Source: a virus
Length of the DNA: 64,000 nucleotides
Virus genome (UHGV): UHGV-1550212
Strand: one strand, 5' to 3'
Shown: piece after piece, positions 3,060 through 44,220 of the stretch
Layout: each line of letters opens with the position of its first letter
Position numbering within the stretch: the first letter of the stretch is position 1
Notes under the pieces: model-generated
Seen by the model: only the letters and a program-made list of their open reading frames with translations
Told to the model about the DNA's origin: nothing
Database searches by the model: none
Translations under genes and position numbers: made by a program

Positions 3060-3207
3060 CAAGAATGCAAAACTTGCACTGAAAATATACACATTTTCAC
3101 ATAACAGCAAGCATAATGCCAAGCAGCACTGCAAGACATATCAAACCTATGCCAAGAACAATAAAGTCCAGCATAGAATACGTGTCATTAGACTGTTTCA
3201 TAAGTAG

Positions 3208-5209: not shown

Positions 5210-5218
5210 GTGTACTTG

Positions 5219-25482: not shown

Positions 25483-26505
25483 TCATTGTTGTTTATGCCA
25501 GCCATATGATGCCTGACCAGCATCATACACTTCTACGAAGCCATGGTCGTACATAAAATCTTCATTACGAGTGCCCTTGCCCCCATTAGTGCCAAGAATA
25601 CGGTCTGCGCCATGCATAAGCAGCATATTATTTGTGACATGTTGCTTTGTCAGCATATTGAACCAGTGTTTGCTATATGACAAGCCAAGACCATCAAAGC
25701 CCAGCTTTGTGTACACACCACCGTCAAACTTGCTTAAATCACAATATGATAACACAGATTCAGGGTCATATGTCTTGATAAAGTGCTTAAAGATTCGTTC
25801 AGCACCACCAACAACTTTGGTTGCTGCACAAAGACGTAGCAATTCATATTGATAGCGCTTATTGTATCGTGGACGACCAAATGTCATAAGTTGATGAATG
25901 ACATAACCACCAAGCAACTCAAGTGGATGACCTTCAATCAACGCAAGATTGATAAAATTGCCTGAGCACTTGCCTTGCAAATGATGTTCAATCAAAAATT
26001 GATTTGCAGTATACTTGTCAATTTCAACAACTTTAAGCTTGCGAGCATATACAATCTTTGATTTGTCTACGATTTGATGCTTGATGTGATTGATAACTTT
26101 CTTGGCGTCATCCCAGTCCCACACATGAATGCAATGAAAGCCTGCTGATTTGGCGATGTCTGTTTTCTTTGCATGAATATCACAAGGCAAATGCGAATCT
26201 TTTGCATCATGCATAAACAGATGTTCAAATGAATGTGTGCTGTTATGTGAAAATGCAGGATTGATGTTAATGACAATATTGTCATGTCGAAAATCGAAGA
26301 CTTCATCGCCAATGACAAAGTTGCGCTCAAAATTTATACCGACATGTTTGAGTAACACTTGATGCCACACATCTTTATAGGCTGATTCAAGCTTGCTTAG
26401 CTCATCACAGTTTGCAATGTTTTTGTAACGTTGAATAGCAGCATCAAAGTCAAGATTGACTTCAGCGTAGTCTGCATTTTTATCGTAGTGAAATTTTGAG
26501 CTCAT
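25483..26505 (-). CDS. Vsr/DUF559-like nuclease-domain protein (paralog family; N-terminal nuclease module, extra C-terminal domain)
   Basis: NIVININPAFSHNS and GFHCIHVWDWDD match the family module; C-terminal GFVEVYDAGQ tail; ATG at 26505. Confidence 0.5.
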   Translation of the reverse strand: MSSKFHYDKNADYAEVNLDFDAAIQRYKNIANCDELSKLESAYKDVWHQVLLKHVGINFERNFVIGDEVFDFRHDNIVININPAFSHNSTHSFEHLFMHDAKDSHLPCDIHAKKTDIAKSAGFHCIHVWDWDDAKKVINHIKHQIVDKSKIVYARKLKVVEIDKYTANQFLIEHHLQGKCSGNFINLALIEGHPLELLGGYVIHQLMTFGRPRYNKRYQYELLRLCAATKVVGGAERIFKHFIKTYDPESVLSYCDLSKFDGGVYTKLGFDGLGLSYSKHWFNMLTKQHVTNNMLLMHGADRILGTNGGKGTRNEDFMYDHGFVEVYDAGQASYGWHKQQ

Positions 26506-26528
26506 GTGTATAATTTTGTATGAGATTA

Positions 26529-26536
26529 TTGTACAA
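26529..26536 (-). promoter_or_regulatory. TTGTACAA promoter-associated motif
   Basis: about 20 nt upstream of ATG 26505. Confidence 0.4.
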
Positions 26537-26612
26537 CATGCAAATGCATGTTGCATTTGATGCAAAGTACTGCGTACACAACATAAAGTACAAGTTTGTC
26601 TTTTGATAGACT

Positions 26613-27674
26613 TTACTTTGTATTGCTACGCGTCATTGTTAAATGACCGCAATCATACACATCAACTTCTGTTTTGCCAAGCATGCATGTATGACAATTT
26701 ATTTTGAAATCTGCTGCAGCGTAATCAGGATAGTTTAGTGGAGATTCTTTTGACAAATCAATTTCAATTGTGTCAGTAGTTTTAAGCTGTTCAGTACCTG
26801 CAATGATATCTGCAATAAGATTGATAACTTCTTCTTGTGAATCCCAATCAAACACAGTTATGCAACGATAGCCTACATCAAGTGCAAGTTTTGTTTTATT
26901 GTAATGGTATTGCGCACCAATAACATTGTTGTCTTTTGCTCGACCAGTTAAATATGCAAAACTAACAGTGCAGTTGTGCGTAACTGTTGGACAAATTTCT
27001 ATAAGTAACTTTGCAGGCTCATACTGCAAATCATATGTTTGATTATTGATGTTAAACTCGTACTGTGTATCAATTGCCAACTGTCGTAATAACGCATCAT
27101 GCCACATCATATTACATTTAGAAATTGTTTTGGATGACAATCTGCATTGAGGCAATTGACATGGCCAATCTACGCCGTACATTTGTTGTGTTGTTTGACG
27201 CATTTTGTTAACATCACCAAAATGATTGCCATATCGATGCTCTTTGGTTTTAAGCGACTGCTCAATATTGACATTGCCTACACAACCATAACGTTCAAGT
27301 TTTGTTGCAGCAGTTTTGCTAACATCACCATGTCCATTACCAAATTTGGCGACTTTAGTTGCAAGTATTTTATGACTTGGGCCAAATGCATTGCCATACA
27401 ATTCTTGTTTAGTCGCAAGCATTTTGTCGATATTACAACCAGCGCCATAAGTGTTATGCATAGTTTGCATACGCTGTCGAATAAATTTTGGCACAGATAA
27501 AGGACTTTCTACACCATATTTGCGTAAGCAACTGATTTTGCATGCGTACTTTTGCTTGATGACAGAATGTGCATTTCGACGTCCTATGTAAGTATTTTCT
27601 GATGTAGCAGCAAGCTCTGCATCTCTAAGAACTTCAAGTGCAGCAATTCGTGCTTCAATTTCTTCAGATGTCAT
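26613..27674 (-). CDS. RYG-repeat / Vsr-DUF559-like nuclease (putative free-standing homing endonuclease)
   Basis: seven ~21-aa tandem repeats each with R/K-Y-G (KYG, TYG, LYG, KFG, RYG, RYG, MYG); C-terminal LLIEICPTVTHNCT...GYRCITVFDWDS...VDVYDCGH. Confidence 0.55.
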   Translation of the reverse strand: MTSEEIEARIAALEVLRDAELAATSENTYIGRRNAHSVIKQKYACKISCLRKYGVESPLSVPKFIRQRMQTMHNTYGAGCNIDKMLATKQELYGNAFGPSHKILATKVAKFGNGHGDVSKTAATKLERYGCVGNVNIEQSLKTKEHRYGNHFGDVNKMRQTTQQMYGVDWPCQLPQCRLSSKTISKCNMMWHDALLRQLAIDTQYEFNINNQTYDLQYEPAKLLIEICPTVTHNCTVSFAYLTGRAKDNNVIGAQYHYNKTKLALDVGYRCITVFDWDSQEEVINLIADIIAGTEQLKTTDTIEIDLSKESPLNYPDYAAADFKINCHTCMLGKTEVDVYDCGHLTMTRSNTK

Positions 27675-28021: not shown

Positions 28022-29737
28022 TCAAATCCAGCCGTAGTCGCTGTGGATAGCGAAGGTGAGATAAGCCAACTCGGGATACATACCCGTCTCCGCGAGAGCG
28101 TAATCCGACTCAATCAGCAACTTAGGTGCTGCTGTACCCTCAGCGGTTAATTCCACACTTGATGCAAGGTCATATGGCATGAATACACATCCCTGGTTGA
28201 CATTCTCTACGTCAACGCCGTCAGCAGTCTTGTTCGTACGAAGAACGAGAACAGTGTTATCGTTCAGCGGCTGCTTAGGATTGCAATAGATTTTAATGCC
28301 AGCCAAGTCACCTGCATAATACAGGTTCTTGTTGTCCTGTACCAGCGTATTGTCAAGAGCTGCAACAAAGTTCTTCTGAGCCTTAATTGCAACCAAGGCA
28401 ATCGTATTGACCACAGCAGCATCACCAGCACCGAAACGCGACAGGTTGCCAATGATTGTCGAAGCAGCCAGGATACGAGTTGCGATACGAGCCTGACGGG
28501 TAATCTGGTTCTCAGCCGAGCTGTTCGATTCAGCGTTAGGAACCATGCCGAACTCAGCCGTGCGGTCTACACCCATCTTGTCAACGAATGCAGGAGCCTG
28601 GAATTCCGAGAATGCCTTGGCAGTCGAACCAGCGTAGCCAATGTACAAGTTCAGGTTGTAGCCCTGAGCAGCCAACAGCTGAGCATGTGTCGTAACACCA
28701 AGTGCACGCATGCGCTTCAGACCATTGTCGTTGATTGACTGCGTGATTTCATTCTGCATTGCATTCTTGATGATTGCAACTGCATCCAAACCGCGAGCAC
28801 GGAGGTCCTTAACCTGGCGACGAGTCAGAGCACCCCAAGTCTGGTACGTCTTAACTTCGATAGCCTTTGAGAAGGTGCGGAGCTCCAGCATGTTCGGGTT
28901 GCCAGCCTCAGCCTCAGAACGAGACATTGGATTGCCGTCAAGGTCATCCATTGCAGCGAAGCCGTGGATGTGTTCGTCACCAGCCGAAACCAGGTCGAAC
29001 ATAACCTCAGTCATGCCAGTCAGCATGTCAGTTACAGCACCTGTAGCGTCAACCGAGTAGATTTTCGATGCAGCCATTGCAACATCAGCCAACGACTTGT
29101 CAGGAGCAACAGTCATTGCGCCACCAGCGCCAACGGTATATACGCCTTCATTGCGAACTACGAGGTAGCCTGCAACACGCGATACCTGTACGAACGTTAC
29201 CTTGGCAGCAAGCTCACCAGCAGCTGAACCGCCGATGTACAGAACTTGACCCTTCTTGAGGCCATGAACCATTGTCTGCGAAGCAACATTGTACAACTCC
29301 TTCCACTTGATGAGGAAGTAGCGAGGACCCTTGGCTGCGTTCAACTTGCCACCACCATACACGTAGTCTACATAGTCCAGCTGAACCAGCGGGCTGTATA
29401 CAGGAATGGCCGGGAGCAGGTCGAACAGAATCGTGTTGGCTGCGATGTTCATGTTCAGAGCCAGAACATTGGCAGCTACATCGATTGAACCACGCTTACG
29501 CGACGGGTCATGGAACTGTGCTTGCGTACCTGGGTCAGCAGGGAAAGCGACCGGACCTACGCCATTGAGATTCTGCGAATACGTCGACTCAAACGACTCG
29601 TTCATATACTGAACGTTCTGAGCGATTGATGCGAGCAGATACTTCTTAGCGGGCGAAAGCTTGGAGTCAAACGACTCATCAAGAACAGGGCCCCACTTTT
29701 TCAGCAATGCATCAATCTGTGTACGTTTTGCGTTCAT
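28022..29737 (-). CDS. major capsid protein (T4 gp23-like)
   Basis: N-terminus MNAKRTQIDALLKKWGPVLDE parallels the gp23 N-terminal pattern; 571 aa; markedly GC-rich C-ending codon usage; followed by a strong terminator. Confidence 0.7.
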   Translation of the reverse strand: MNAKRTQIDALLKKWGPVLDESFDSKLSPAKKYLLASIAQNVQYMNESFESTYSQNLNGVGPVAFPADPGTQAQFHDPSRKRGSIDVAANVLALNMNIAANTILFDLLPAIPVYSPLVQLDYVDYVYGGGKLNAAKGPRYFLIKWKELYNVASQTMVHGLKKGQVLYIGGSAAGELAAKVTFVQVSRVAGYLVVRNEGVYTVGAGGAMTVAPDKSLADVAMAASKIYSVDATGAVTDMLTGMTEVMFDLVSAGDEHIHGFAAMDDLDGNPMSRSEAEAGNPNMLELRTFSKAIEVKTYQTWGALTRRQVKDLRARGLDAVAIIKNAMQNEITQSINDNGLKRMRALGVTTHAQLLAAQGYNLNLYIGYAGSTAKAFSEFQAPAFVDKMGVDRTAEFGMVPNAESNSSAENQITRQARIATRILAASTIIGNLSRFGAGDAAVVNTIALVAIKAQKNFVAALDNTLVQDNKNLYYAGDLAGIKIYCNPKQPLNDNTVLVLRTNKTADGVDVENVNQGCVFMPYDLASSVELTAEGTAAPKLLIESDYALAETGMYPELAYLTFAIHSDYGWI

Positions 29738-29825: not shown

Positions 29826-31217
29826 TCATTTTTCAATCTTTTTGAGCAATGCATGACCACAATCATAGACTTCGACGAAGCCTGACGCAATCATTTGTTG
29901 CCTATCAAACCCATTGTCAAGTAGATGTTCCCATGTCTTTGTATTGTGCCAATGCAATTGAATTGATGATTTATCTGTACTAAGCTGCGGATTTTTTGAA
30001 AAGTCTGCACAGTCAATTTTGTCACCGTTAAGATGCTTACGAATGCATTCAATGACAGTGTCGTGGTCATCCCAGTCCCATATTGTTATGCATACATAGC
30101 CATGTTGTAATGCAATTTGTGTCTTGTCAAAATGACTATCATGTCTCTTTGGCCTATTACGCTTTGTGCGCTTAGTAATATATGCATATGAGTATGTTGA
30201 GTTATGCGAAAATGTTGGATTCACTTCAATCAACAATTTGCAATGTTCATTTTCATAATGCAAGTCATATGAAAAGCCAAGTAGCTTAACATCGTCATAA
30301 CTGCAATCAATGTTAAGCTCTTGTTGCAACTTATCATGCCAAAATTGATTTGGCTTAGATATTATGTTGCCTTGACTGTTTATGCAGTTAGAAGTCATAC
30401 ATGACCATGGCACGCCATAACGCTCAATGTTTGTTTTGTTTGCACTTGCTTGAATTTTTGACAATGGGCCCCATGGATGACCATACTTTGCACGCTTGAC
30501 ATCTGCACCACGTTTAGCAACTTCACGATAATCGCCATAACGCTCTTTTCTTGTAGCAAGCATTTTTGCAATATTGCCCGCGCCACGAGAGCCATATCTA
30601 AGCTCTTTAGTCTTTTGAGCTTTGGCGTAATCACCACAAAATGCATTGCCATATCGAGCAATTTTTGTTGCTTTCATTTTTTCAATGTTGCCTGCACCAG
30701 CATTGCCATAACGTTCAAGTTTTGTTTGCTTGGACAATTCAACATTGCCAAATTTGTTGCCATAACGCACTAATTTTGTTTCTTGTGAACGTTGACGTAT
30801 TTCTTGCACTTGTGCACAGTATTCTACGCCATAGCGTTTTAACATTGTTATTCGTTGATTATATGCACGTTTAATAGGTGCATGCGATGTTCGTTTTGGC
30901 CCATATTTAACAAACTCAGTAGATGCAAGTAATTCATCACGCTCACGTTCAAGTTCTGCAATTCGTTGTTGTATATGGACATCATACACAGGCTGCTCAG
31001 AAATGTCATCAATAGCTGTCGTTTCTAATTTAGCAAGTTTGCGTTTAAGAGCTTTTGTTGTTTGCGTGCAGCTCATTTTTATCAATGCATGTGCATGTCT
31101 GCCACAGTCAAGTACAATGTTAGGCTCATTTGCAAGGCGTTCATCACGTTTACATTCTGCAGCATGTATTGCATCAATAAGTTGTCGTCTCTTTACATTA
31201 TATTCGTCTTGTGTCAT
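29826..31217 (-). CDS. RYG-repeat / Vsr-DUF559-like nuclease (putative homing endonuclease)
   Basis: tandem repeats (KRYG, VRYG, ERYG, ARYG, LRYG, ERYG, AKYG, ERYG); C-terminal FSYDLHY...LLIEVNPTFSHNS...GYVCITIWDWDD...FVEVYDCGH. Confidence 0.55.
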   Translation of the reverse strand: MTQDEYNVKRRQLIDAIHAAECKRDERLANEPNIVLDCGRHAHALIKMSCTQTTKALKRKLAKLETTAIDDISEQPVYDVHIQQRIAELERERDELLASTEFVKYGPKRTSHAPIKRAYNQRITMLKRYGVEYCAQVQEIRQRSQETKLVRYGNKFGNVELSKQTKLERYGNAGAGNIEKMKATKIARYGNAFCGDYAKAQKTKELRYGSRGAGNIAKMLATRKERYGDYREVAKRGADVKRAKYGHPWGPLSKIQASANKTNIERYGVPWSCMTSNCINSQGNIISKPNQFWHDKLQQELNIDCSYDDVKLLGFSYDLHYENEHCKLLIEVNPTFSHNSTYSYAYITKRTKRNRPKRHDSHFDKTQIALQHGYVCITIWDWDDHDTVIECIRKHLNGDKIDCADFSKNPQLSTDKSSIQLHWHNTKTWEHLLDNGFDRQQMIASGFVEVYDCGHALLKKIEK

Positions 31218-31333
31218 AATTATCTGTGTTTAATTTATGTATACTATTGTATTGTAGCATTGACTACTTTGCGCATAACAAAAAAGAAGCCAAGTCATTT
31301 GACTTGGCTTTGAAATGTGTACTTGCAGTTGTA

Positions 31334-31909
31334 TTAGAACTGAGAACCGACAACTCGTGGCACTGCAAGTTCGCTCGTAAGAGTAACTTGGCAAGTGTAA
31401 ATGTCGTCACTATTCTTGTCATGTGAATCAACTGCGCTGATAGGACCCTTAGGGAATCCATTCTTGTACGACGTTACTCTCCAGGCTGTTCCAACCTGAT
31501 TATTTTCAACGAGAATCCAAGAACCTACATAGTTCTTCTTGAGACCCATGGCTCCCGTGAGAGGATTCCTGCGTTTAGCATTCCAACTTTGGAAAGCATT
31601 GTAAATCACAGGGTCATTGGTGTCTGGTCCATGCAAGTTCAGATTCATTGTGATAGTCAGGTTATGAATGTTGCTGACTGTCAATGCTGAGAACTGACGA
31701 GACTGATTTTGTGCAACTTTTTGTGAAACCACATCAGGCGCATTGTCAAGTGTGCCCAAACCTGAAATTGACTGAATTTGCTCATCAATTGTATCTGGAA
31801 TCACAACGCCTGTAGGTGGCATAAGTGTGAGCTCGAACAATGAACTGAACACGGGTTCAGCATATTCGGCAGTCACTTCGCTGTTTTTGATATGCGGTAA
31901 CTTCGGCAT
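31334..31909 (-). CDS. tail tube protein (gp19-like)
   Basis: 191 aa downstream of sheath gene; N-terminal LFELTLMPPTG and C-terminal IYTCQVTLTSELAV parallel gp19 patterns. Confidence 0.5.
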   Translation of the reverse strand: MPKLPHIKNSEVTAEYAEPVFSSLFELTLMPPTGVVIPDTIDEQIQSISGLGTLDNAPDVVSQKVAQNQSRQFSALTVSNIHNLTITMNLNLHGPDTNDPVIYNAFQSWNAKRRNPLTGAMGLKKNYVGSWILVENNQVGTAWRVTSYKNGFPKGPISAVDSHDKNSDDIYTCQVTLTSELAVPRVVGSQF

Positions 31910-31950
31910 GATTGTAATGTGTTATTAAATTGTTCTTGTTTTGTTATGCG

Positions 31951-32646
31951 TCATCGTACAGTGAATGAATTATCGTCATCTTCTGTAGTAGTTGGGTCAT
32001 CAATTACATCGTGGCCAATACCTGACATGGGCTCTGGCTCAGGTTCCGGTTCAGGTTCCGGTTCAGGTTCCGGTTCAGGCTCCGGTTCAGGTTCCGGTTC
32101 AGGTTCCGGTTCAGGTTCCGGTTCCGGTTCCGGTTCAGGTTCCGGTTCAGGTTCCGGCTTGGGCTTTGATGAATAGTTAAACATCTTGTGAATCCATTTG
32201 CACCACCATTTGTGACATGCATGTGCGCCATCATGATAATACGCTTGCAGCTCCATTGGAATTGCATGATATGCTTTGTCATGTGACATACCTTTGAATA
32301 TTCGCAAGTACACATAGCACAAGCAATATGCAATGTAGTACATAAGCGGTGATGCAAGCAGCCACCACCAGCTAAGCACATTGCATGCTGCAAGCACAAT
32401 AAGTACAAGCAACGTCGCAAGTGTTACAAAGATGAATTGCTTTGCATGCACAGCTTCATGCTTCAAGGTCTCAGAGTATCTGCTAAGTGTGTCATCATAT
32501 GACTTATCACTTCTTATGAAGCACATTGCACACAACGACATTGCATAATAATGTGAAAATGGAATGCATGGCTGGTCGATGACAAGCATTGGTCCAGCAA
32601 ACCACAGTCGCCACTGAGATTTATTTGGCAGTGTTGCAGTTTTCAT
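31951..32646 (-). CDS. membrane protein with HExxH motif and long (Pro-Glu)n repeat
   Basis: HEAVH motif next to two hydrophobic helices, then about 25 PE dipeptides and an acidic tail. Confidence 0.5.
32029..32160 (-). repeat. hexanucleotide tandem repeat (ggttcc/ggttca)n encoding (Pro-Glu)n
   Basis: about 22 near-perfect 6-bp units with a 12-bp super-period. Confidence 0.9.
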
Positions 32647-32709
32647 AAATGATGTTTATTGTTTGATGATGAAGACTGAAGAGCCGAAGCTCTTCAGTCT
32701 GTCAATTTG

Positions 32710-35547
32710 CTACTCAGCAGATGCACCTTGCAGTGACAATGTTGTACGATGTACGCCAATTCGAATGCCTTGAGCATTGATGATTTCAGTGTCAAGTACA
32801 ATGAATCCGCGAGCAATCGTTTCATCATCATTGTTGCTGCTATCGCAGACATTCGTGTACGAAACTGCGCCACCGGCTGCAACGATGCCATCCATGAAGT
32901 TGTCTGCTTTTGTTTTGACCTGCAAACGAACATTTGCAGTGTTTCGTTTGTACTGAGCAGACTTCAGATATGGCTCAATGTTGTCAGCGACATAGATGAG
33001 CAACTCAAGATTTTCAATGTAGCTGAATGCGCTGGTGTAAGCTACTTGTGCAGAACGAGATGTCAGCATTGTGATGACGCCTTGGTCTGAACGAGCGAGC
33101 ATGTTCCAACCTGCAGGTTCAAGGTCATCCATATCAGACCCTTCACCTTGCGAGACAATCATGTCAATGTCGGTTACACCAACACCAGACAGTGGCCACT
33201 CATCACCAGCAACGACGTCAAAGACATGCTTGCCTGCTTCTGTATGCTTTCTCATGAAGACATTCGACAAGATACCTGTTGCAGGAATCGTCATATCATC
33301 AATGCCATCATTGTAGCGAACATTGGCTACATATGTGATGAACGGTGCGCCATCAGTTTGACCTGCGAAGCTGAACAACTTGCTGTATGGTTTATCGGTG
33401 TTACCACCTGCAGCACAGTACTTAGACTCAATTGGGTCACCTGCATTGTCCTTAAAGTACGGGTCAGTTGAGCGGAACAAGTCATACTTGGTTGGCAGAG
33501 CAGAGAATGCGATTGCACGTTTTGAATCATTGCAAATCTTTGCAAACTCGTACTTTTGATTTGCTGCAATGTATGTCTTGAATGGGTCAACTACATAACG
33601 CCATTGACATTGATTGTGGTCCATCAAGCTACGATAAACGCCGCCTGAAATGAGAGCTTGCAGTACTTCTGTCTGACGTGCAGATGTGCCATCAACAAAT
33701 TGAGTTGCACGAAGAGCTACACCATGTAGATATGCGCCCTTGAAGAACTTAACTTGGTCAACAAGCTTCGTCAATGACCAAACAGACGCCTGCGAGGCGT
33801 ACTTCATCATTGAGCCATCTGCAAGTTCAAATTCGCCTTCAGCACCTGCAGCTTTGTATGCCAATGCACCAGTGAATTGATATTCAATCAGCACTTTGTT
33901 TTCTGCAAATGCGTCGTAGACATTCTTCTTCTCAAGCGGCGACAAATCAGCTTCAGTGATTGTGATTGGCATACCGCCATACTTGAGTGGCTTGTCTAAT
34001 GGCAGGCCATTTGAATCATATTCAACAAGGTCACCGCCATATGAAATTGTCTCACCTGCAGCTCTTGCTTTACGAGCTTTCGTTGATGAAGTTTCTGCAT
34101 CTGCAGACTCTTCGCCGCCAATTATGACTGTTGAGCCTTGTGGATAGATGAAGTTGCCCTTTGCATCCTGAGGGAATGCTACCTTTGCACCTGATTCGTT
34201 AGTGTACATTGGAATGCCGCCTTCCTTGCCAATGACAGGAACTGCGCGATATTCAGCTACAACTGCGCGACTTGTACAACGTACTGGCGAGCCATCTGCA
34301 CCAATAAAGATGTCGCCAAGCGAAATTGGCAACACTGGTGCAACAAATGAAGTCTTTGAAGCTTCACCTGGCTGCACAAATGGAACCATCACATTAACAA
34401 ACTCAGATGACACGAAGTCCTTGAGCTGTTCTTTTGTGATTGCGACATCTGTTGCTGTTGGCGTGCAGTCAATCTTTTCAGGATTGATGTCAGTTGACGG
34501 ACGAGCCATGCCAAGATATTGATGCGTAGCATCATCAGCAAACAGTGGACCTGCAGCGTCATCTACAGAAATGTAGTTCGAACCAAAGATGTCCACTGCA
34601 CGTTGGAAACGAGCATCTTCGATATCATTCGAATTGTAGAACTCGTCAACCTTGTCAGGGTCAATCTTACACATGATACCCGTCGTGTCTGACACTGCAT
34701 TCACAGCAGTTTCCAATGACAACTTGTTACCATTGATATCAAGCAAGTCAGGAATCAATGAGCCAGATACACGACCCATGTAGCCAGATGCAGCAAGCTT
34801 TGACAATGCCTCAGGACCATACATGCCATCAACTTGTGCACGGATACCATCCTTTGTGAAGTACTTGCCATATACAGTCGAACCTGCAAGTGACTCATAG
34901 TTCGTCAGCTTTTCAGAGAAGAACCAAACGTCAACCATATAGTCTGACACAAGGTCATTGCAATTCACGCCAGGCACATACATTGATGGGAAGCGGTCTT
35001 GAACTGACTTGATATCATAATCATAGCCAGTCAATGTCGTCGGCGTAATGAAGATTGTTGCAGACTTGTTTGTAAGTGTTGAGAAGTTGAGCAGTTGTAC
35101 AGGGTCAGTGCCAACTGCATTGAGCAGATTCAATGGCTCAGCTTTCCAGAAGTTTGATGTATCATAGACATCCTTAAATGGAACGTCTACAGGCGAGCCA
35201 TCTTCTCCTGAGCTGTTTGCAGCAAAAGTCACTCGTGACAACACATCGCTATCATTGAATGAGCGCAAGTTCAACACAAGAATTGGGCTTGTTGCAAGCA
35301 TTTGCTCTGCAATGAGACCAGCGAAACAGCCGGCACGCTCCAAACGCTTGTCACGTTGACCGAAAATTTCATGCAGCTGGTCTGCATCTTCAACAAGCGC
35401 GGCGCGATTGACCGGACCGTTCTTCCACTGGCCAGGCAGCAATCGAAGTGTTTGAGCGGGCAGTGAGTCAAGGCGACTTGCGTCAATGAACAGACGATAT
35501 GTCCCGACTGACTTGAACCGTTCAAATAAAGAAGTGTTATTTGCCAT
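32710..35547 (-). CDS. contractile tail sheath protein (gp18-like)
   Basis: N-terminal pattern PGQWKNGPVNRAALVEDADQLHEIFGQR parallels the gp18 W-GP...FG motif; large protein immediately upstream of tube gene; ATG at 35547. Confidence 0.65.
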   Translation of the reverse strand: MANNTSLFERFKSVGTYRLFIDASRLDSLPAQTLRLLPGQWKNGPVNRAALVEDADQLHEIFGQRDKRLERAGCFAGLIAEQMLATSPILVLNLRSFNDSDVLSRVTFAANSSGEDGSPVDVPFKDVYDTSNFWKAEPLNLLNAVGTDPVQLLNFSTLTNKSATIFITPTTLTGYDYDIKSVQDRFPSMYVPGVNCNDLVSDYMVDVWFFSEKLTNYESLAGSTVYGKYFTKDGIRAQVDGMYGPEALSKLAASGYMGRVSGSLIPDLLDINGNKLSLETAVNAVSDTTGIMCKIDPDKVDEFYNSNDIEDARFQRAVDIFGSNYISVDDAAGPLFADDATHQYLGMARPSTDINPEKIDCTPTATDVAITKEQLKDFVSSEFVNVMVPFVQPGEASKTSFVAPVLPISLGDIFIGADGSPVRCTSRAVVAEYRAVPVIGKEGGIPMYTNESGAKVAFPQDAKGNFIYPQGSTVIIGGEESADAETSSTKARKARAAGETISYGGDLVEYDSNGLPLDKPLKYGGMPITITEADLSPLEKKNVYDAFAENKVLIEYQFTGALAYKAAGAEGEFELADGSMMKYASQASVWSLTKLVDQVKFFKGAYLHGVALRATQFVDGTSARQTEVLQALISGGVYRSLMDHNQCQWRYVVDPFKTYIAANQKYEFAKICNDSKRAIAFSALPTKYDLFRSTDPYFKDNAGDPIESKYCAAGGNTDKPYSKLFSFAGQTDGAPFITYVANVRYNDGIDDMTIPATGILSNVFMRKHTEAGKHVFDVVAGDEWPLSGVGVTDIDMIVSQGEGSDMDDLEPAGWNMLARSDQGVITMLTSRSAQVAYTSAFSYIENLELLIYVADNIEPYLKSAQYKRNTANVRLQVKTKADNFMDGIVAAGGAVSYTNVCDSSNNDDETIARGFIVLDTEIINAQGIRIGVHRTTLSLQGASAE

Positions 35548-35653
35548 GTTCGTTATCGTATTTGTTGTAAATTGTGAAATGTTGCTTTGTTTGATTATAA
35601 CTTGATATATGTATGTATATGATGACATCAAACATGTTGTTGACCAAAATCAA

Positions 35654-35704: not shown

Positions 35705-38700
35705 TTAGCCACGAATCAAGTCAACCAAGCGTTGCTGTTCAGGAGTCAATGAAGACTTTCCGCTGCCATCAATGTTTTCGTTAACGAAACCGACTGGCTG
35801 CTTAGTCGAATATGACTTGATTGCAGCCCAGTTACGTGAACGATAGAATGCTGCGACATCTGACTCATTTACGAAAGTGCGAACTGCTGCCTGAGTAGCA
35901 ATCAATGACTTCTGTTCAGGAGTCAAGCTTTCATAAATGTACTTGTATGCTGTTGGCATATGCTTCAGATACAATGGTGTATGGTCAATTGGCTGCAGGT
36001 TCTCATCCAAGACTGCTACACCAGCAGCATCATAGCGAGTTGCAAGCTGCTTTGTTTGACGACGCAATGCAGCAATTTCATGCTTGATGCTTGTCAAGCA
36101 TTCATCAGTTGCTTGTGCGCCAAGATATGTGCGAAGCATATCAGACAGCATCTTCTGATTTGCATCGGTCAAATCACCTGCAACTTCAATGCCAGTCAGC
36201 TGGCCATCTTTGCTGATGACTACAGAAATTGTAGAACCGTCGCGTTCAACTGTGCGGAAGTCAAAGTCATCGTATGACTTATCCTTAAGGACAGCTTCAC
36301 GAATATTGTCATCTACGCCTTCATTGACCATGCTCATGCATTCCTCAACATCTACGTCAAGTCCAAGCTCTTCTGCAGTTTCAGCAATCTTTTCTGCAAG
36401 CTGAGCTTTATTCTCAACTTTGTCAAGGTCTGCTGCATCTGATACAGCATCGACAAGTTCATCTGCCTGTGCACGAGTAATCGTTGAAGCATCAACAAGG
36501 CCATCAATGATTTGCTCTACATCTGCAGGTGTCGGCTTGTTGTCTTCTGCTGCTTCATTGATAAACTTGGCAGTCTTTGGCTTGTAGCTAAGCTTGCCCT
36601 CATTGACCATCTCATCCTGCAATTGTGCAGCGATGTATGCAATTAGCAATGACTTGTTGGCTTCAAGTTCATCGACTGCTTCAGCAGACTTTTGAGCTTT
36701 GATGAGTTCATCGTAAGCTGCTGCAACTTTGTCATCCATCGTAGACTTGTCAGGGTCAATGTTTTTGATGCATGTCTTGACAATATCATCCTGATAGAAC
36801 TTGTCAATGATTGATTTGTCTGTGTCAGAGTATGTTGCATATAACTTGTCTGCGACAATTGATTCATTGACAATCTTGCCTGGCTCAGATGCAGGAACAA
36901 GAGTCCACTTACCATCAACTTCTGCAACAATGCCTGAAGTCGATTCGCCATAAGTGACTGTTAGACGAGTGCCTGCTTCATTGTTGTCAATTGTGTTGAC
37001 GACTGCTTCGAATTCATTACCATCAGCGTCATAGATTTTGATGCTGTCACCGACAGCAGCTTCATCTACTGGTGCTTCGAAGAACTCTTTGACAAAGTTC
37101 TGAACATCAACGGGCAGACTGTCATATGGCTGTGATGCATAGTACTCTGAGTCAGCATCAAGGTAATTCTTTGAAAGCAGCCAAGCTTTTCGAGTAGCAA
37201 CATCTGCAGCATTCCAAGCATCGACTGACTCATCGCAGTCATCGACAAGTGCAAGATACTCATGGTCTTTCTTGTCATCAAAACGAAGAGTAATCTTTTG
37301 TTCGGGCTTGCCAGCAGGCCAAACTTCGACTTCAATTTCTGTAGTGCCTGCAACATTTTTGACTGTGCCTACAACAATCTTGTCGCCTTTGTTGATGCCA
37401 TTAGACATGTCGTATGGTGCTTCAATAGATTCATCTGTCGACTGAGCTCGAATTGCTGCAGCAATAGCATTACGAGATTCATTGTCGAACATCTCCCATG
37501 TAGCATTCGCAGCATCTTCTACACCAATCTTGTCTTTGCCAACCTGCTCAATCAACTGATTGCGGTCAGCTACTGAAGCATTGTACCACCAGTCTGCAGC
37601 AGTGTCAGATGCTTCATTGACAAATGCATTGAGCAATGCAGTCTGAACGTTATCAGGCAACTTGTCAAAGTCAACAAGCTCTACGTCATCTGCAATATTT
37701 GCTTGCTTTGCTGTTGCTTTACGGCCATCTGCATCAGACTTATTCCAGTCATCAATGAATGCCTGTTCAGCAGCAGATTCATCAAGCGCTTTGACAGTTT
37801 CATATCGACCGTCATACAGCATGTACTTATCGCCTTCTTTGATGGCTACAGACTCCTTGCCATTGTACTTGAATGACACTTTGTCACCATTGAAGCCGGT
37901 CAATTCAGCTGTGATTTTATCGCCATTCTTGTCATACACTTCAACTGTCTGCTCTTCATCAATGTTCAAGTGCTTCTTGAGTGCATCTACAAGTTCTTTG
38001 CCAAGAGCGTCTTCATTGTCATGGGCTTGCTGGAAGCAATCTTCATCTGACTTGTCAGGCTGAACAGCTTTCAATGCTGTTGCCCGATTAAGCATTGACA
38101 TCGTGCCCCAGATTGACATGAAGCTTTTGCCCTCATTGTCTTGTGCTTCGGCTTCGTCAATTGCATCAATGTCTTTCTCAAGCATTGCATGATGAGCAAT
38201 GTCGATGCCAGACCATTTCGTCTTTGCATTATATGGCAAACCAATATGCTTCGACAAAATTGACTGACGTTGGTCATCTGTGAATGAATCCCAAGCTTCG
38301 CCAAGTGTTGCATGCTTTGCTTCATCAGCAGCAAATTCTGTTTCAATCTTAAGTTTGTGGTCCTTGTCAATCAGTTGCCACTTGGCATTTGGACGATAGA
38401 ACTCAGACAATGACAGCTTGTCAAGAATGACTTTGCGTTCGTCATCTGACAATTCGTCCCACTTGTTGTCAGCAGATTCATCGATGTTGACGAGTTCTTT
38501 CTCAATGAGATTCTTGTCAAGCATTGCATCAATGATTGGCTGCTGGGCTTCTGCTGGAATGTCTTTGAACGACTTAATTGCAATGACAGCGTCTTTGTCA
38601 TCAACTTTAGCAGCTTCAACAATTTCTGTCTTCACTTCATCAGTCAAAGCGCCCCAAGCAGCATCGAGATAATCAAAGTTGAGAGCTTCATCACATTCAA

Positions 38701-39820
38701 CAATGCCATACTGCTTTGCAATGTCATTGTGCTTGTCAAGATTGCTGTTGAGTTCAGCTTCAATTGCTGCTTTGATGTCATCAATTGACTTATCTTCAAC
38801 TTCAAGCTCAAGAGCTTTTGCAAGTTCAGTCAATGCTGCATCATCAAGCTTGCTAATGTCATAAGGCTTAGCATCTTCATTTGTGAAGTCAATGCCAAGC
38901 AAAGACATTGCTTGCTTCTTGTTTTCTTCTGAGAGTGCATCGAATGCAGTTGCAAGACCGACATCGGTGTAGTCGCACCCAACTTCGTCAAGTAATGCTT
39001 CGACTTTCTGGATGTTTTCTACGCCAACTTCGTTAGCATCAGCATTGTTGTATGCCTCAACAAAACGTGATTGGTTTGTCATGGTAGTGAAATCTTCTAT
39101 TGATTCGTTTATGAGTTGCTGTTTGAGTGCATCCAATGATGCTGAGCCAATCAATGCATCAGGGAATAGCTTCTGCAACATACCTGTACGTGCAAGCTCA
39201 ATCAATTGGAGCATCAATGAGTTTGGCGAGTCTTCGTCATCTACAGATTCACAAATGAGAGTGTCTTTTGATTCATTAACTGAACCGACAAGATTGAACT
39301 CTGCATTCGAAAAGCCTGGCTGTGCAACCAAATCAAATGTCACGATTTTGAGAAGCTGAACTCTGCCAGTAGTTGGATTGACTACGCCAAGGGCGCGACT
39401 TGAAATGAACAATGGCGAACCTGCTGTAACAATTGCCCATGCAATGCGACCTGCAGGCGTATCAAGAATTGTAATGTAGCCTTCAAAACGTCGTTTTTCA
39501 GGATTCCATTCAATACTGTCCAATCTGTGGCTTACGTTTCCATAACGTACAGTACGTCGCTTAACATGTTCAAGTTCGCCAAGAAGTCGCTTTGCTTTAA
39601 TTGCAGGTTGCAATGCCTGTACTTGAGCAAAGTAATTCTCAAAGTCATACGTGCGCCCATTTTCGTTTTTCTGGTCCATGTATGCATACACGCCAAAAAG
39701 ACGACCAAGTGCGCCGCTTGGCACATGAGAATCTTCTGCTTCAACTACAAACTGACAATCTGCGCGGCTTTCAAGCATAAGTGAGGCTTCCCTGCCTTTG
39801 TACTTATATGACTTTGCCAT
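35705..39820 (-). CDS. prohead protease-like N-terminal domain fused to ~1200-aa acidic scaffold-like region
   Basis: N-terminal ~190 aa with GELEHVKRR and LFISSRALGVV (gp21-like His/Ser context); remainder highly acidic with nine aliphatic-N-E motifs; ATG at 39820. Confidence 0.5.
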   Translation of the reverse strand: MAKSYKYKGREASLMLESRADCQFVVEAEDSHVPSGALGRLFGVYAYMDQKNENGRTYDFENYFAQVQALQPAIKAKRLLGELEHVKRRTVRYGNVSHRLDSIEWNPEKRRFEGYITILDTPAGRIAWAIVTAGSPLFISSRALGVVNPTTGRVQLLKIVTFDLVAQPGFSNAEFNLVGSVNESKDTLICESVDDEDSPNSLMLQLIELARTGMLQKLFPDALIGSASLDALKQQLINESIEDFTTMTNQSRFVEAYNNADANEVGVENIQKVEALLDEVGCDYTDVGLATAFDALSEENKKQAMSLLGIDFTNEDAKPYDISKLDDAALTELAKALELEVEDKSIDDIKAAIEAELNSNLDKHNDIAKQYGIVECDEALNFDYLDAAWGALTDEVKTEIVEAAKVDDKDAVIAIKSFKDIPAEAQQPIIDAMLDKNLIEKELVNIDESADNKWDELSDDERKVILDKLSLSEFYRPNAKWQLIDKDHKLKIETEFAADEAKHATLGEAWDSFTDDQRQSILSKHIGLPYNAKTKWSGIDIAHHAMLEKDIDAIDEAEAQDNEGKSFMSIWGTMSMLNRATALKAVQPDKSDEDCFQQAHDNEDALGKELVDALKKHLNIDEEQTVEVYDKNGDKITAELTGFNGDKVSFKYNGKESVAIKEGDKYMLYDGRYETVKALDESAAEQAFIDDWNKSDADGRKATAKQANIADDVELVDFDKLPDNVQTALLNAFVNEASDTAADWWYNASVADRNQLIEQVGKDKIGVEDAANATWEMFDNESRNAIAAAIRAQSTDESIEAPYDMSNGINKGDKIVVGTVKNVAGTTEIEVEVWPAGKPEQKITLRFDDKKDHEYLALVDDCDESVDAWNAADVATRKAWLLSKNYLDADSEYYASQPYDSLPVDVQNFVKEFFEAPVDEAAVGDSIKIYDADGNEFEAVVNTIDNNEAGTRLTVTYGESTSGIVAEVDGKWTLVPASEPGKIVNESIVADKLYATYSDTDKSIIDKFYQDDIVKTCIKNIDPDKSTMDDKVAAAYDELIKAQKSAEAVDELEANKSLLIAYIAAQLQDEMVNEGKLSYKPKTAKFINEAAEDNKPTPADVEQIIDGLVDASTITRAQADELVDAVSDAADLDKVENKAQLAEKIAETAEELGLDVDVEECMSMVNEGVDDNIREAVLKDKSYDDFDFRTVERDGSTISVVISKDGQLTGIEVAGDLTDANQKMLSDMLRTYLGAQATDECLTSIKHEIAALRRQTKQLATRYDAAGVAVLDENLQPIDHTPLYLKHMPTAYKYIYESLTPEQKSLIATQAAVRTFVNESDVAAFYRSRNWAAIKSYSTKQPVGFVNENIDGSGKSSLTPEQQRLVDLIRG

Positions 39821-39953
39821 ATTTGAATTGTGTTTGAAAGTTTGCAAATTTTTGTTGTTATTGATTATATATGCAAGGCAGACTTGTGTGTTGAAAAATT
39901 GCAAAATTTCAGTTATGTGTACATAACAAAACCATCCAAATCAATTCAATTAT

Positions 39954-41167: not shown

Positions 41168-42961
41168 TCAATTTTGTGTTGCAACGTCATCAGTCTTGTT
41201 ATCAACTGGCTCATCGTCGACATGTGTATCAACATCAATGCCAGAAGCTGCAGCAAGTGAAACATCATTAGCGACGCCTTGTTGTTCAAGTTGTTGTTGA
41301 GCTTGCTTTGTTTGAATTGCGACAAGTCTTGCAGCTTCCATTGCAAGCTTAAGATTCTCTTGAAGTTCGATATCAAGCTGTTCAGCATTAGCTTGCATGT
41401 CTTCTTTGCTTAAGCCAAGATACTTGTTGATAAGCCAATTGCTTGAGAAGAATGGGCGTTCAGTATCAGACATGTTAAGTGAACGAACAAGTGAACTGCG
41501 AATGTCTTCGATTGTATGAATACGCTTCTGAAGCAATGTGAGCTCCATTTGCGTCTGGAAATGATTGTATCTATTGAATTTGAGTTTTAGCGCATTCAAA
41601 ACTTCATTGTCGCCAATGTAGTTATTGTTTTTGATGCACATCAAAACATACACAGGCTTCAATATGATTGCAATGCCAAATCTACGCATCAAAGCTGAAA
41701 TAAAGATTGCAAAACGACGCTCATCACGCTGAATTGACTCTTCAGAAACATTCCACATGCCACCGCCATCATCGAATCTGCTTAGAGGCAGCTTTGACAG
41801 ACGTTGTAAGTTATTGCGGAAATATGTGACTGCTGAAGTATCAGATAAGTCAGGCATGCCTGTGCCAATTGTTTGAATGTTGGGTTTGCCTGCATTAGTG
41901 TCAGCCATCCAAAATTCGCTATTGAAAGGCACAGATGCTTCGCCATTAACTTGGAGTTCGCCGGTTTGATTGTCGAATTCAATTTTTTCGTGGTACTTAT
42001 TCATTGCTTTACGCAATGTTTCCTGTGCAGCAGCTTTCAGTTTACCGCCAGTAGGAATTGTGATAAGTGAACGAAAACGAGAAGCTGTCGTAGCATATGC
42101 AATGCGACTTCGCTCCAAAATCCTGAGCAAGTTGAATGCACGAACAAGACGCTCAAAATATGACATAGACCCAACCATGTCATCGTTCCACTGCAAATAT
42201 GCTACTTGCGAATCAAGCAAGTTGATTTTTTCTGAGTTGTTAGACACAAATGCTGGTGCTTTGACATCAAACATTGTATGTGTCTTGAACATATCTTGTT
42301 GAGACTTATCATACTGCCAGAAGAACATTTCACCCTTCTTCATAGGCGTCAATGCAAATGCATTCAACTTTTTGATGCCAACAATATCAGTCGGCTCATC
42401 TGCATTATCAAACACAATCTCATAGCCAAGTCTGCCTCGTACAAGATATTCACGCAACAATGCTCTAACATCTTGTTTGCGAGGTTCAGAGTTCAACCCA
42501 TTGAATGCATACATCAAATAGACTTGCTTGAATGCATCCATAAAGTCATCTTTGATTGTCTGCTTTGCTGTGTCGTCTATCTCAAGTTTATCGATGTCAC
42601 AAAAATCAGGCTCGCAAAAGAAATTACTATCGGAATTGAACACGATGCACTCATCAATCATGCGGTCAAGAATGTCGTCGAGTTCCGGTTCTGCACTTAA
42701 GATGTCATATTTTTTGGCTCGAAGATAACTTGTCAATCCAAAAAGATTCTTTTTAGGTGACTCTTTCTGATTGAACACGTCATCAGTAGACAACACAACA
42801 ACTTCTTGGTCATTGATGTTATGCTCACCTGTATATGCTGCTTTCTCCAAATCTGCATCAGACCCAGACTTGTGCACATTCAATTGCTGCAATGGACTGT
42901 CTTTCGGAATTGAGCGTAATGCATCAGTTCCCAGATATGTTCGTTTGGTCTTTTTAGCCAT
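41168..42961 (-). CDS. portal protein (gp20-like), putative
   Basis: 597 aa, basic N-terminus and acidic C-terminal tail; segment KDDFMDAFKQVY...RALLREYLVRGRLGYEIV fits the portal pattern; located upstream of protease/scaffold. Confidence 0.5.
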   Translation of the reverse strand: MAKKTKRTYLGTDALRSIPKDSPLQQLNVHKSGSDADLEKAAYTGEHNINDQEVVVLSTDDVFNQKESPKKNLFGLTSYLRAKKYDILSAEPELDDILDRMIDECIVFNSDSNFFCEPDFCDIDKLEIDDTAKQTIKDDFMDAFKQVYLMYAFNGLNSEPRKQDVRALLREYLVRGRLGYEIVFDNADEPTDIVGIKKLNAFALTPMKKGEMFFWQYDKSQQDMFKTHTMFDVKAPAFVSNNSEKINLLDSQVAYLQWNDDMVGSMSYFERLVRAFNLLRILERSRIAYATTASRFRSLITIPTGGKLKAAAQETLRKAMNKYHEKIEFDNQTGELQVNGEASVPFNSEFWMADTNAGKPNIQTIGTGMPDLSDTSAVTYFRNNLQRLSKLPLSRFDDGGGMWNVSEESIQRDERRFAIFISALMRRFGIAIILKPVYVLMCIKNNNYIGDNEVLNALKLKFNRYNHFQTQMELTLLQKRIHTIEDIRSSLVRSLNMSDTERPFFSSNWLINKYLGLSKEDMQANAEQLDIELQENLKLAMEAARLVAIQTKQAQQQLEQQGVANDVSLAAASGIDVDTHVDDEPVDNKTDDVATQN

Positions 42962-42981: not shown

Positions 42982-44220
42982 CTATACACGTCTTGTCAAT
43001 TTGACATGACCGCAGTCATCTGCAAGCAGTTTAACATGACCGCAGTCATCTGCAAGCAGTTTAACATGACCGCAGTCATAAACTTTGACGAAGCCTGCAT
43101 CAATCATAGTTTGCTCATCATGATTGCAGTCAAGCACATGTGTATGAGTTTTCATATTGTACCAATGCAAGCCGATGTAAAAGTCAGTCTTGTGATATGC
43201 GTCAGTATATAATCGTGGGTCATCTATAGACAAATCAAGTTCGACGCAGTCAGCAGTCTGCAGTTGTTCTGTGTCAGTTAGCAATGATTTGACAAGCTTG
43301 ACTACAGCATCAAATGACATCCAATCAAATACAGTGATGCATCTATAGCCATGTTGCATAGCTGTGCAACATTTGTCAAAATGCGTAGTTGATGCAATTG
43401 GCTTGTTGACTGTAGAACGACCAGTAGCAAAATCAAATGCAAATGTGCTGTTATGCGTAAATGACGGATTGACATCAATTAGCAAATTGTCATATCGCAA
43501 ATCAAATGCGTAGCAATCTACGTCATGTTCATATTCAAAATCAACACCAGTATGCTCAAGTAGCATATCATGTAACAAGACGTTTGGCTTTGTAATGATT
43601 TTGCCATTTGCAAGTCTGCACTTCTGAGTTAAACAATGCCAAGGCACGCCATATCGTTCAAGTGTAGTGTTGCTAATCTTCTGCAAATTGCCAAAACCGC
43701 TGCCATAGCGTAATTGCTTTGTGACTGTTTGCTGTGCAACATTACCATTAGCATGACCAAACTTGTTGATGTTTGTTTGCTTGCGCTTAGCATTTGCAGT
43801 TGCAATATCAACAGATTCAAGTGACTCAAGAAATTTTGACATGTCGCCAAGCCCATTGCCATATAGTTGACGTTTAGTGTCAACAACTTTTGTCATGTTC
43901 CAGTGCTTGTAGCCATATCGAGCTTCTTTTGTCGCAAATGCTTTGTCATAGTTGCCAAAGCCTGCATGACCATATCGTTCAACTTTTGTTGCAGCAATTT
44001 TGTCTGAGACTTCTTTAAGCTGATGTTTGTATTCAACGCCAAACTTGCGCAAATTTGATATGCGAATGTTGAACACTCGTTTGACTTTTGTATGCGTAGA
44101 GCCTTTGTCAAGCTTTGCATATGGAATTTGTGCAAGTGCAGCGTCTCTTTCATCTTCAAGCTCTCTTATTCGAGCTTCAAGTGCATCACCAGCCAAAACT
44201 TCTATGCGTATAGTCTGCAT
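42982..44220 (-). CDS. RYG-repeat / Vsr-DUF559-like nuclease with C-terminal tandem decapeptide repeat
   Basis: N-terminal ALEARIRELEDERD coiled coil, RYG repeats, LLIDVNPSFTHNS...GYRCITVFDW...FVKVYDCGH; C-terminus DCGHVKLLAD repeated three times. Confidence 0.55.
   Translation of the reverse strand: MQTIRIEVLAGDALEARIRELEDERDAALAQIPYAKLDKGSTHTKVKRVFNIRISNLRKFGVEYKHQLKEVSDKIAATKVERYGHAGFGNYDKAFATKEARYGYKHWNMTKVVDTKRQLYGNGLGDMSKFLESLESVDIATANAKRKQTNINKFGHANGNVAQQTVTKQLRYGSGFGNLQKISNTTLERYGVPWHCLTQKCRLANGKIITKPNVLLHDMLLEHTGVDFEYEHDVDCYAFDLRYDNLLIDVNPSFTHNSTFAFDFATGRSTVNKPIASTTHFDKCCTAMQHGYRCITVFDWMSFDAVVKLVKSLLTDTEQLQTADCVELDLSIDDPRLYTDAYHKTDFYIGLHWYNMKTHTHVLDCNHDEQTMIDAGFVKVYDCGHVKLLADDCGHVKLLADDCGHVKLTRRV
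43001..43080 (-). repeat. 30-bp tandem direct repeat (about 2.7 copies) at the 3' end of the nuclease gene
   Basis: ttaacatgaccgcagtcatctgcaagcagt repeated. Confidence 0.85.

Follow-up and report, generated by a model that had tools for sequence, protein, structure and literature searches.

Three groups of described proteins come close to the gene considered here. The M48 peptidase HtpX and the M56 protein BlaR1 both hold a cytoplasm-facing HExxH site beside the membrane, and in HtpX of Escherichia coli a two-helix membrane hairpin lies between the HExxH motif and the glutamate ligand. Some crAss-like phages carry small genes annotated as putative zincin proteases that correspond to PHROG 15610, such as AXH74547.1 of crAssphage ctbg_1 and gp117 of Bacteroides phage BS-TP1. 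Lastly, the PVC-metallopeptidase domain, now DUF4157 or eCIS_core (PF13699), bears an HExxHxxQ-E signature and is predicted to run from beta-strands through a histidine helix to a later glutamate helix (Zhang et al. 2012, PMC3482391, section 13). Extracellular contractile injection system (eCIS) loci, defined by the presence of sheath and gp19-like tube genes, have it as a core marker of unknown role, with long linkers and C-termini that vary after it (PMC8213781); the AlgoCIS particle carries DUF4157 proteins as cargo inside its tube lumen (PMC8894135). Here we describe a gene in a 64,000-nucleotide stretch of the virus genome UHGV-1550212 (the window) that encodes a small membrane protein with an HExxHxxQ signature and lies between the tail sheath gene and a putative tail tube gene. 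It belongs to the same family as these crAss-like phage genes. With moderate confidence, we read its product as a cytoplasm-facing, membrane-tethered, zincin-like late protein, either metallopeptidase or adaptor, with a rigid spacer whose length is tuned by slippage.

The gene is a complete open reading frame (ORF) of 231 codons plus stop with an ATG start. A sequence-only reading of the window had placed exactly there a 231-residue ORF with an HEAVH motif next to two hydrophobic helices, followed by a dipeptide repeat and an acidic tail. The gene and the parts of its protein are as follows:

31951..32646, minus strand: the HExxH membrane protein ORF, from the reading frame, its homologs, and the ratio of non-synonymous to synonymous divergence (dN/dS)
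32512..32610, minus strand: N-terminal four-stranded beta-sheet (residues 13-45) with the conserved IPF motif (P29, F30), predicted by AlphaFold2 (AF2)
32437..32460, minus strand: HEAVHAKQ, the HExxHxxQ signature (residues 63-70; HEAVH at 63-67), read from the sequence
32374..32436, minus strand: predicted transmembrane helix 1 (residues 71-91), continuous with the HExxH helix, from hydropathy and AF2
32362..32373, minus strand: SWWW turn joining the membrane helices (residues 92-95), predicted to face the periplasm from conservation and the count of lysines and arginines (K/R)
32296..32361, minus strand: predicted transmembrane helix 2 (residues 96-117) with the invariant Y107, from hydropathy and AF2 (helix 93-117)
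32236..32274, minus strand: 'glutamate helix' region (residues 125-137) with Y126 and E132, from the family consensus AY.NISFE.EAY
32176..32235, minus strand: histidine- and cysteine-rich amphipathic helix (residues 138-157), from AF2 (helix 144-157)
32029..32166, minus strand: KPKP(EP)21 tract (residues 161-206), a length-variable spacer encoded by a (GAA CCK)n hexamer repeat
31954..32028, minus strand: acidic C-terminal tail of 25 residues (207-231), from the sequence and four alleles
31919..32176, plus strand: antisense 'GS-repeat' ORF, a shadow of the repeat and not a gene

The ORF is a genuine gene under purifying selection. A protein 96% identical to its product (P0001) lies on an ENA contig with the same order of sheath, HExxH, and tube genes; an exhaustive HMMER search returned 98 cluster representatives at E < 1e-3, and a search with the family profile returned 425 relatives. 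Searches of GenBank phages with the region and the window protein by blastn and tblastn gave no match; the GenBank phage relatives (118 records, BS-TP1 gp117 among the tblastn finds) were reached by tblastn with another family member as query. Over the N-terminal 160 codons, dN/dS against close relatives is 0.055 to 0.24, the value against L001 being 0.055 (26 synonymous and 7 non-synonymous changes), and the flanking genes are similar (sheath 0.04, tube 0.05-0.07). Because family homology and synonymous-biased divergence both sit in the minus-strand frame, the opposite-strand ORF of GS repeats is, as had been supposed, an antisense shadow.

Conservation was assessed by aligning the window protein with 333 homologs, 214 of the long phage type and 119 of the short bacterial type. 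H63, E64, H67, and Q70 are conserved in 99-100% of these (Q70 in 99%), Y107 in 100%, and Y126 and E132 each in 98-100%, and all are retained in the window protein. The sequence-only reading had named absence of the HExxH residues from homologs as the outcome that would count against it; the motif is present nearly throughout, and although an HExxH motif could arise by chance, this degree of conservation in both types makes chance unlikely here. Likewise strongly conserved across the family are E73, E110, E134 (96-100%), A135, Y136, Y142, and R146, and P29 is kept in 84-87% of homologs. The family consensus reads ..IPF.GY.A....F.R....NHE.IH..QQ.E, then the hairpin with its SWWW turn, then FY.WYG.EYLIR....AY.NISFE.EAY.NE..L.YL..R.

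Two forms make up the family. The phage form, of about 135-145 amino acids with the two-helix hairpin, numbers several hundred and occurs in phages of Bacteroidota, including crAss-like phages and Lak megaphages, both with human gut members, and phages of Riemerella, Bacteroides, Phocaeicola, and Parabacteroides. The bacterial form, of about 108 amino acids, is a stand-alone gene in non-prophage contexts on the chromosomes of Flavobacterium, Gillisia, Spirosoma, and other Bacteroidota, with at least 8,000 candidates. Since the phage forms carry the hairpin and the chromosomal short forms do not, sequence comparison marks the hairpin as an insertion typical of the phage versions. The family is large and widespread and has no Pfam or NCBIfam model; we found no experimental study of it, and literature searches on crAss-like phage, zincin, and HExxH returned nothing on this HExxHxxQ family. 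The short form is extremely common in Flavobacteriia and Cytophagia and lies outside Pfam, and its UniRef names are inconsistent ('DUF4157' or 'Peptidase M56 domain-containing'); examples at 4974..5327 of L046 (Flavobacterium covae chromosome) and 4866..5219 of L049 (Spirosoma telluris) adjoin urocanase or transporter genes.

Some family members have an in-frame TAG at the invariant glutamine of HExxHxxQ: L027 and L028, each with a second TAG further along (codons 42 and 116 of the 5001-5390 match), and L031 and L032 (codon 45 of the 5001-5339 match). By sequence, this position points to gut phages that recode TAG to glutamine. The contigs concerned are binned in metagenome-assembled genomes labelled Bacteroides, Clostridium, Bacilli, and Sphaerochaeta, which probably reflects mis-binning of phage contigs as bacterial. 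Separately, L005 and L006, which carry the family member P0015, have a diversity-generating retroelement about 3 kb downstream, with bAvd, a reverse transcriptase, and an Lcl_C-type target.

Structure prediction upheld the two hydrophobic helices of the sequence-only reading. Given a multiple sequence alignment, AF2 modeled the window protein at pLDDT 80.5 and pTM 0.75 (single-sequence modeling was poor, at pLDDT 53), with four beta-strands (13-17, 20-25, 35-38, and 41-45), an HExxH helix that runs on as the first transmembrane helix, the second transmembrane helix, two short helices bearing Y126 and E132 (122-128 and 130-137), and an amphipathic helix. Kyte-Doolittle hydropathy reaches 2.66 in the first membrane helix, which AF2 models at 59-87 with pLDDT above 90, and W94 and W95 of the turn are kept in 79-84% of long forms. 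The modeled order of sheet, histidine helix, and later glutamate helix is the zincin arrangement, and E132, placed on a helix C-terminal to the hairpin, is a candidate third metal ligand. Lysine and arginine are absent from the inter-helix loop in 204 of 214 members, and both flanks average about three K/R; the positive-inside rule accordingly predicts a cytoplasmic location for both termini and for the putative metal site (N-in/C-in). In line with this, the short version in L011 starts MKRS.

In this arrangement, with H63/H67 followed by membrane helices at 71-91 and 96-117 and then by E132, the window protein matches the order of HtpX. It differs from the M48 and M56 proteins in that no HMM or profile similarity extends past the motif, and the present family is much smaller and lacks both the M48 ExxAD-type motif context and sensor domains. 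Foldseek found no significant fold similarity to solved zincins, its top match, BlaR1, being non-significant.

Among library profiles, the sole match to the window protein is PHROG 15610, 'protease' (E 2.3e-7, 31.9 bits; residues 20-74 against profile positions 1-47 of 105), from which gp117 of BS-TP1 takes its annotation; GenBank annotations of homologs read 'protease' or 'putative Zincin superfamily protease'. The PHROG 15610 relatives resemble the window protein in their beta-sheet, HExxHxxQ motif, two-helix hairpin with SWWW turn, and AY..FE.EAY helix. They are unlike it in length (about 105-145 amino acids, with no C-terminal extension), in keeping E73, E110, and E134, and in their location in early, replication, or nucleotide-metabolism regions.

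Several results weigh against reading the window protein as a working zincin of the tail region. A search against M48, M50, and SprT-like peptidases had been proposed as a check on the sequence-only reading, and it came back empty: Pfam and NCBIfam scans of the window protein gave no match to these or any other peptidase, no curated peptidase model matches the approximately 115 family members scanned, PF01435 (M48) matches neither the window protein nor 115 relatives, and NCBIfam and PADLOC scans of 66 members yielded noise only. With hhalign, a profile of four E. coli M48 paralogs gave a probability of 0.1% over 12 motif columns only, and HtpX singly aligned at the motif alone or not at all. 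Phmmer and hmmsearch runs of the protein and family profiles against the PDB gave chance matches only (antitrypsin, a zinc finger, and a ciliate oxidase subunit). The window protein also carries the substitutions E73F, E110C, and E134Q at glutamates that are 78-100% conserved elsewhere, and its homolog P0004 lacks the same glutamates; this loss makes catalysis by the window protein uncertain. In other phages the family gene lies in early or replication neighborhoods, near genes for a gp32-like single-stranded DNA-binding protein, thymidine kinase, dUTPase, and integrase. A sister lineage at the same locus (the L011 type, below) has retained the gene and has neither the HExxH domain nor the repeat; having lost that whole domain yet kept the gene, it indicates that function at this locus may not need catalysis. 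Finally, HExxH is present in non-peptidase enzymes too (PMC13434306). What had been called a possible membrane zinc-metallopeptidase-like core thus holds as a membrane protein with a conserved HExxH motif, whereas the peptidase assignment finds no matching family and faces the three lost glutamates. Overall, the observation made in the sequence-only reading is confirmed and its interpretation partly supported, and we would call them right and largely right, respectively.

The occurrence of HExxH outside proteases also invites a non-peptidase metal enzyme at the membrane surface, such as a hydroxylase or lipid-modifying enzyme, in which HExxH, the glutamine, and carboxylates would form a non-zinc or two-metal site. 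The family does conserve many carboxylates and tyrosines beyond the motif (E73, E110, E132, E134, Y107, Y126), and weak FA_desaturase matches occur in the window protein and 7 members; these reach 15 bits against a cut-off of 29.7, however, the family lacks the three histidine boxes, and only one of the four carboxylates remains in the window protein, so that we consider such an enzyme most improbable. A fatty-acid-desaturase-like His-box enzyme in particular was rejected, the matches being sub-threshold and the extra histidines not conserved.

The locus, where the sequence-only reading had set the gene between those for sheath and tube, reads as follows:

32710..35631, minus strand: tail sheath gene, 973 amino acids (phrog_34521, E 2e-112)
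32670..32704, minus strand: stable RNA hairpin with a 12-bp stem, a UUCG loop, and no U-tract (dG -22.4 kcal/mol, z -6.6)
31334..31909, minus strand: putative tail tube gene, 191 amino acids (phrog_32623, function unknown)
31287..31310, minus strand: intrinsic-terminator-like hairpin with a T-run after the tube gene

The HExxH ORF begins 63 nt downstream of the sheath gene and ends 41 nt upstream of the 191-residue gene. The sheath half of the placement is firm, with further weak matches to PF17482 and T4 gp18 (PDB chain 9mkb, E 0.005); the listed sheath ORF begins at a TTG, its alignment with the L079 sheath begins at residue 29, and the true start is likely the ATG at about 35547. For the tube half, we infer a tail tube gene from position, size, synteny (the counterpart of the 191-residue gene comes after the sheath gene in MA9V-2, PAU, and PTm1), and a weak hhalign match to T4 gp19 (E 0.002, probability 14%, collinear to the C-terminus). 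By its major capsid and tube proteins, the window belongs to a clade of Bacteroidota jumbo myophages that also includes Chryseobacterium phage MA9V, Tenacibaculum phage PTm1, Sphingomonas phage PAU, and Lak phages. The nearest contigs are metagenomic (L023 is labelled human gut), and a 175-kb IMG/VR contig encodes a tube protein 98% identical to that of the window. Within this clade, three closer sub-lineages have the gene at the sheath-tube slot:

Sub-lineage (i), window type: the window, L010, L001, and L025
Sub-lineage (ii), L079: sheath 49% and tube 62% identical; a 255-residue homolog, P0004 (E 7e-21), between sheath and tube
Sub-lineage (iii), L011, L023, and L024: tube 66% identical; an intact 85-residue ORF with the hairpin and acidic tail only

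Among the more distant cultured relatives the same slot is empty in MA9V-2, holds an unrelated 366-residue protein in PAU, and holds two unrelated small proteins in PTm1. The comparison with related phages thus bears out the gene's presence at the junction in the closer sub-lineages only, and the description of it as inserted there holds for its position and not for any recent arrival; a recent moron insertion was rejected, the gene being common to all three sub-lineages. The window protein and P0004, which are 24% identical in BLASTP, have both lost E73, E110, and E134; in both, the glutamate helix is followed by one rich in Cys and His, and a long C-terminal extension has an acidic end. The His/Cys-rich amphipathic helix is confined to this tail-junction subfamily, P0004 having a comparable Cys-rich segment. 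The L079 slot holds two further ORFs beside P0004.

The 85-residue form of sub-lineage (iii) is identical in three independent contigs, and its hairpin homology is significant (alignment score 90, reached by 0 of 1,000 shuffles). With its small size, two transmembrane domains, a predicted N-in/C-in topology, and a charged C-terminus, it resembles a class II holin, which suggests a lysis-timing or superinfection-exclusion protein (holin, antiholin, or Imm-like) in which the hairpin would be the active part and the cytoplasmic domains regulators. Probable late co-expression with structural genes and the restriction of the hairpin to phage members of the family point the same way. Yet no holin family in Pfam or PHROGs is matched, the hairpin is part of a family with a strongly conserved enzyme-like core, and the C-terminus is acidic and not basic; we regard this explanation as quite improbable.

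The other distinctive part of the window protein is its repeat. The sequence-only reading reported about 25 Pro-Glu units at 32029..32160; the hexamer array and X-Pro tract are there, the tract itself being KPKP(EP)21, or 23 X-Pro units over 46 residues, at 32029..32166. Tandem Repeats Finder places the array at 32039..32157 (period 12, 9.9 copies, 96% matches, score 224), and it is the strongest tandem array in the window. Variation in length, which had been raised as a possibility from the slippage-prone repeat, is found: phages otherwise 96-99% identical in protein sequence have four alleles, always in frame (K = KP, e = EP):

L001: 12 units, KKeeeeKeKeee
L025: 17 units, KKeeeeKeeeeeeeeee
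Window: 23 units, KK followed by e x21
L010: 32 units, KKeKeK followed by e x26

The flanks of the repeat are conserved across the four alleles, and the acidic tail, also anticipated by the sequence-only reading, is the same in all of them save M207E in L010 and N226K in the three other alleles. As the repeat unit is 6 nt, slippage never shifts the frame; the variation is length tuning and not on/off switching, and phase-variable switching was rejected on that ground. In the P0004 lineage the C-terminal extension consists of a predicted coiled coil of about 75 residues and then a shorter X-Pro tract, which varies too (5-9 units among cluster members). Acidic tails of similar pattern end both P0004 and the 85-residue L011 form; homology of the C-terminal tails between lineages was rejected as non-significant, 184 of 1,000 shuffles reaching the score.

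Alternating X-Pro tracts, such as the (EP)n(KP)n of TonB, are stiff, extended spacers. If the same geometry applies here, a rise of about 0.3 nm per residue would give the alleles lengths of approximately 7 to 20 nm. The window tract is like the TonB rod and the EP repeats of trypanosome procyclin in its alternating Glu/Lys X-Pro dipeptides; it is unlike them in its predicted cytoplasmic, rather than periplasmic or extracellular, location, and it is much longer than that of TonB. The likeness is compositional and not homologous: the window protein has no TonB C-terminal domain, Pfam giving no TonB_C match, and the EP tract accounts for the sub-threshold Pfam match to Trypan_PARP (40 bits, with the cut-off at 100). 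A TonB-like periplasmic rod was rejected given the predicted N-in/C-in topology and an N-terminal domain without a signal peptide.

The length-varying spacer form, the coiled-coil sister form, and the hairpin-only form amount to three natural 'experiments' that indicate which parts are under selection. One rival reading is a pseudo-enzyme tether: the zincin-like domain would be non-catalytic, and the hairpin, spacer, and acidic peptide would anchor or sequester a partner at the membrane, which could come from the host or be an intermediate of phage assembly. The loss of the three glutamates from the window protein and P0004 and the hairpin-only sister form at the same locus make this a serious rival, and a spacer built in two ways, by coiled coil with a short X-Pro tract or by a long X-Pro tract, suggests selection on reach and not on chemistry. 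Against it, H63, E64, H67, Q70, Y107, Y126, and E132 are all kept in the window lineage and P0004 despite 24% identity, dN/dS of the N-terminal domain is low, and the tail similarity between lineages has no significance in the shuffling result. On balance we consider the tether unlikely, though worth taking seriously.

Under the membrane-tethered zincin-like reading that we favor, this is a late gene that points the same way as its sheath and tube neighbors and probably shares their transcript. Its product would be a small inner-membrane protein, at work late in infection, whose N-terminal beta-sheet and HExxHxxQ helix sit at the cytoplasmic face. That helix would pass straight into the two-helix membrane hairpin with its short Trp-rich outer turn; with the chain back in the cytoplasm, the E132 helix would pack back to form a zincin-like (gluzincin-type) metal site against the membrane. 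In the gut jumbo myophage clade the gene has settled at the sheath-tube junction and gained its long C-terminal extension, in which KPKP(EP)21 may form a stiff polyproline-II-like rod of about 14 nm that holds the acidic 25-residue peptide off the membrane. Replication slippage on the 6-nt repeat would alter the rod by whole X-Pro units (12 to 32 seen) with the frame kept. The protein could then act on a membrane-proximal cytoplasmic target, the C-terminal peptide binding it and the spacer setting the reach.

Given a hairpin without a U-tract after the sheath gene and a terminator only after the tube gene (31287..31310, the sole such site that combines a T-run with a G+C-rich stem), sheath, HExxH, and tube genes probably form one late transcription unit that ends there. 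The hairpin at 32670..32704, between the sheath stop codon and the HExxH ORF, recurs at the same post-sheath place in L010 (about 5156..5183) and, with a different sequence, in L011 (5647..5681); a possible role is in attenuation or mRNA stability, by lowering downstream expression or stabilizing the sheath message. No Shine-Dalgarno sequence was read before the ORF, which fits a Bacteroidota host.

The position of the gene brings the comparison back to DUF4157. Its signature is present in the window protein as HEAVHAKQ and E132, in the same predicted order of strands, histidine helix, and glutamate helix as in the account of Zhang et al. (PMC3482391), and linkage to sheath and tube genes holds in the window, L010, L001, L025, L079, and, as a remnant, the L011 type. 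One could accordingly imagine a phage-borne DUF4157 relative that works with the contractile tail, processing, loading, or membrane-delivering a protein of the tube lumen or one ejected from it, with the X-Pro rod as a molecular ruler, or that is itself carried or ejected. For comparison, true DUF4157 domains were gathered from viral contigs by motif search and verified with Pfam (77-98 bits). By hhalign, the short-form profile aligned with DUF4157 at a probability of 22% (E 1e-3), a weak match limited to the motif over 22 columns, and the long-form profile at 6.5%, so that the resemblance is better than that to M48; the UniRef label on some short forms agrees.

Against kinship, PF13699 matches neither the window protein, nor 115 relatives, nor the UniRef-labelled short forms at E<=1-10, whereas the true DUF4157 controls score 1e-21 to 1e-28. 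Family HMMs score true DUF4157 proteins below 10 bits in hmmsearch, which counts against the favored zincin-like reading as well, and the hhalign matches cover just 16-22 columns. DUF4157 proteins differ in lacking a membrane hairpin and in their usual toxin domains; the hairpin here predicts insertion in the membrane of the producer cell and not packaging. Most family members are not tail-linked, the sheath/tube association being absent in crAss-like, Lak-related, and other phages, and the bacterial short forms stand alone, away from any contractile injection system. The resemblance is confined to the motif, membership in DUF4157 is not established by these comparisons, and we judge a phage counterpart of the eCIS protein improbable. 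A real link would touch an unanswered question about contractile injection systems, point to a phage ancestry of the eCIS domain, and offer a simple two-gene-flanked system for finding what DUF4157 does; if it is not, the gene is a modest addition, an accessory membrane protein of an uncultured phage.

One further protein touches on this comparison. In L070 (IMGVR_UViG_3300028625_000007), a 196-residue ORF at about 6324..6349 (minus strand) falls just over the PF13699 threshold at 24 bits and reads HELTHVMQQ, then IWWEKYLKR...LEQEAEAY, by eye like the IWYGLEYLIR...FEREAY of the present family. It may represent an intermediate, an idea to which hmmsearch and hhalign lend no statistical support.

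Elsewhere in the structural region of the window, three paralogous homing-endonuclease-like genes (25483..26565, 26613..27674, and 29826..31217, all minus strand) flank the gp23-like major capsid gene (28022..29737), one of them lying between the tube and capsid genes. Two match DUF7487, and those at 25483..26565 and 29826..31217 match phrog_3339. With these three genes, the structural module carries several mobile-looking insertions. A further mobile-element-type gene of the clade's structural region, encoding a TnsA-like endonuclease (PF08722), lies beside the terminase gene at 2220..3389 (minus strand) of L079.

On the other side of the sheath gene, the first 350 or so residues of a 1,399-residue ORF (35705..39904, minus strand) match the prohead maturation protease (phrog_207, E 4e-32), and the other 1,000 or so are very acidic, possibly a protease-scaffold fusion. 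A 30-nt tandem repeat (43000..43079; 2.7 copies, 98% matches) lies inside the ORF at 42982..44220 (minus strand), which adjoins the portal gene (41168..42961).

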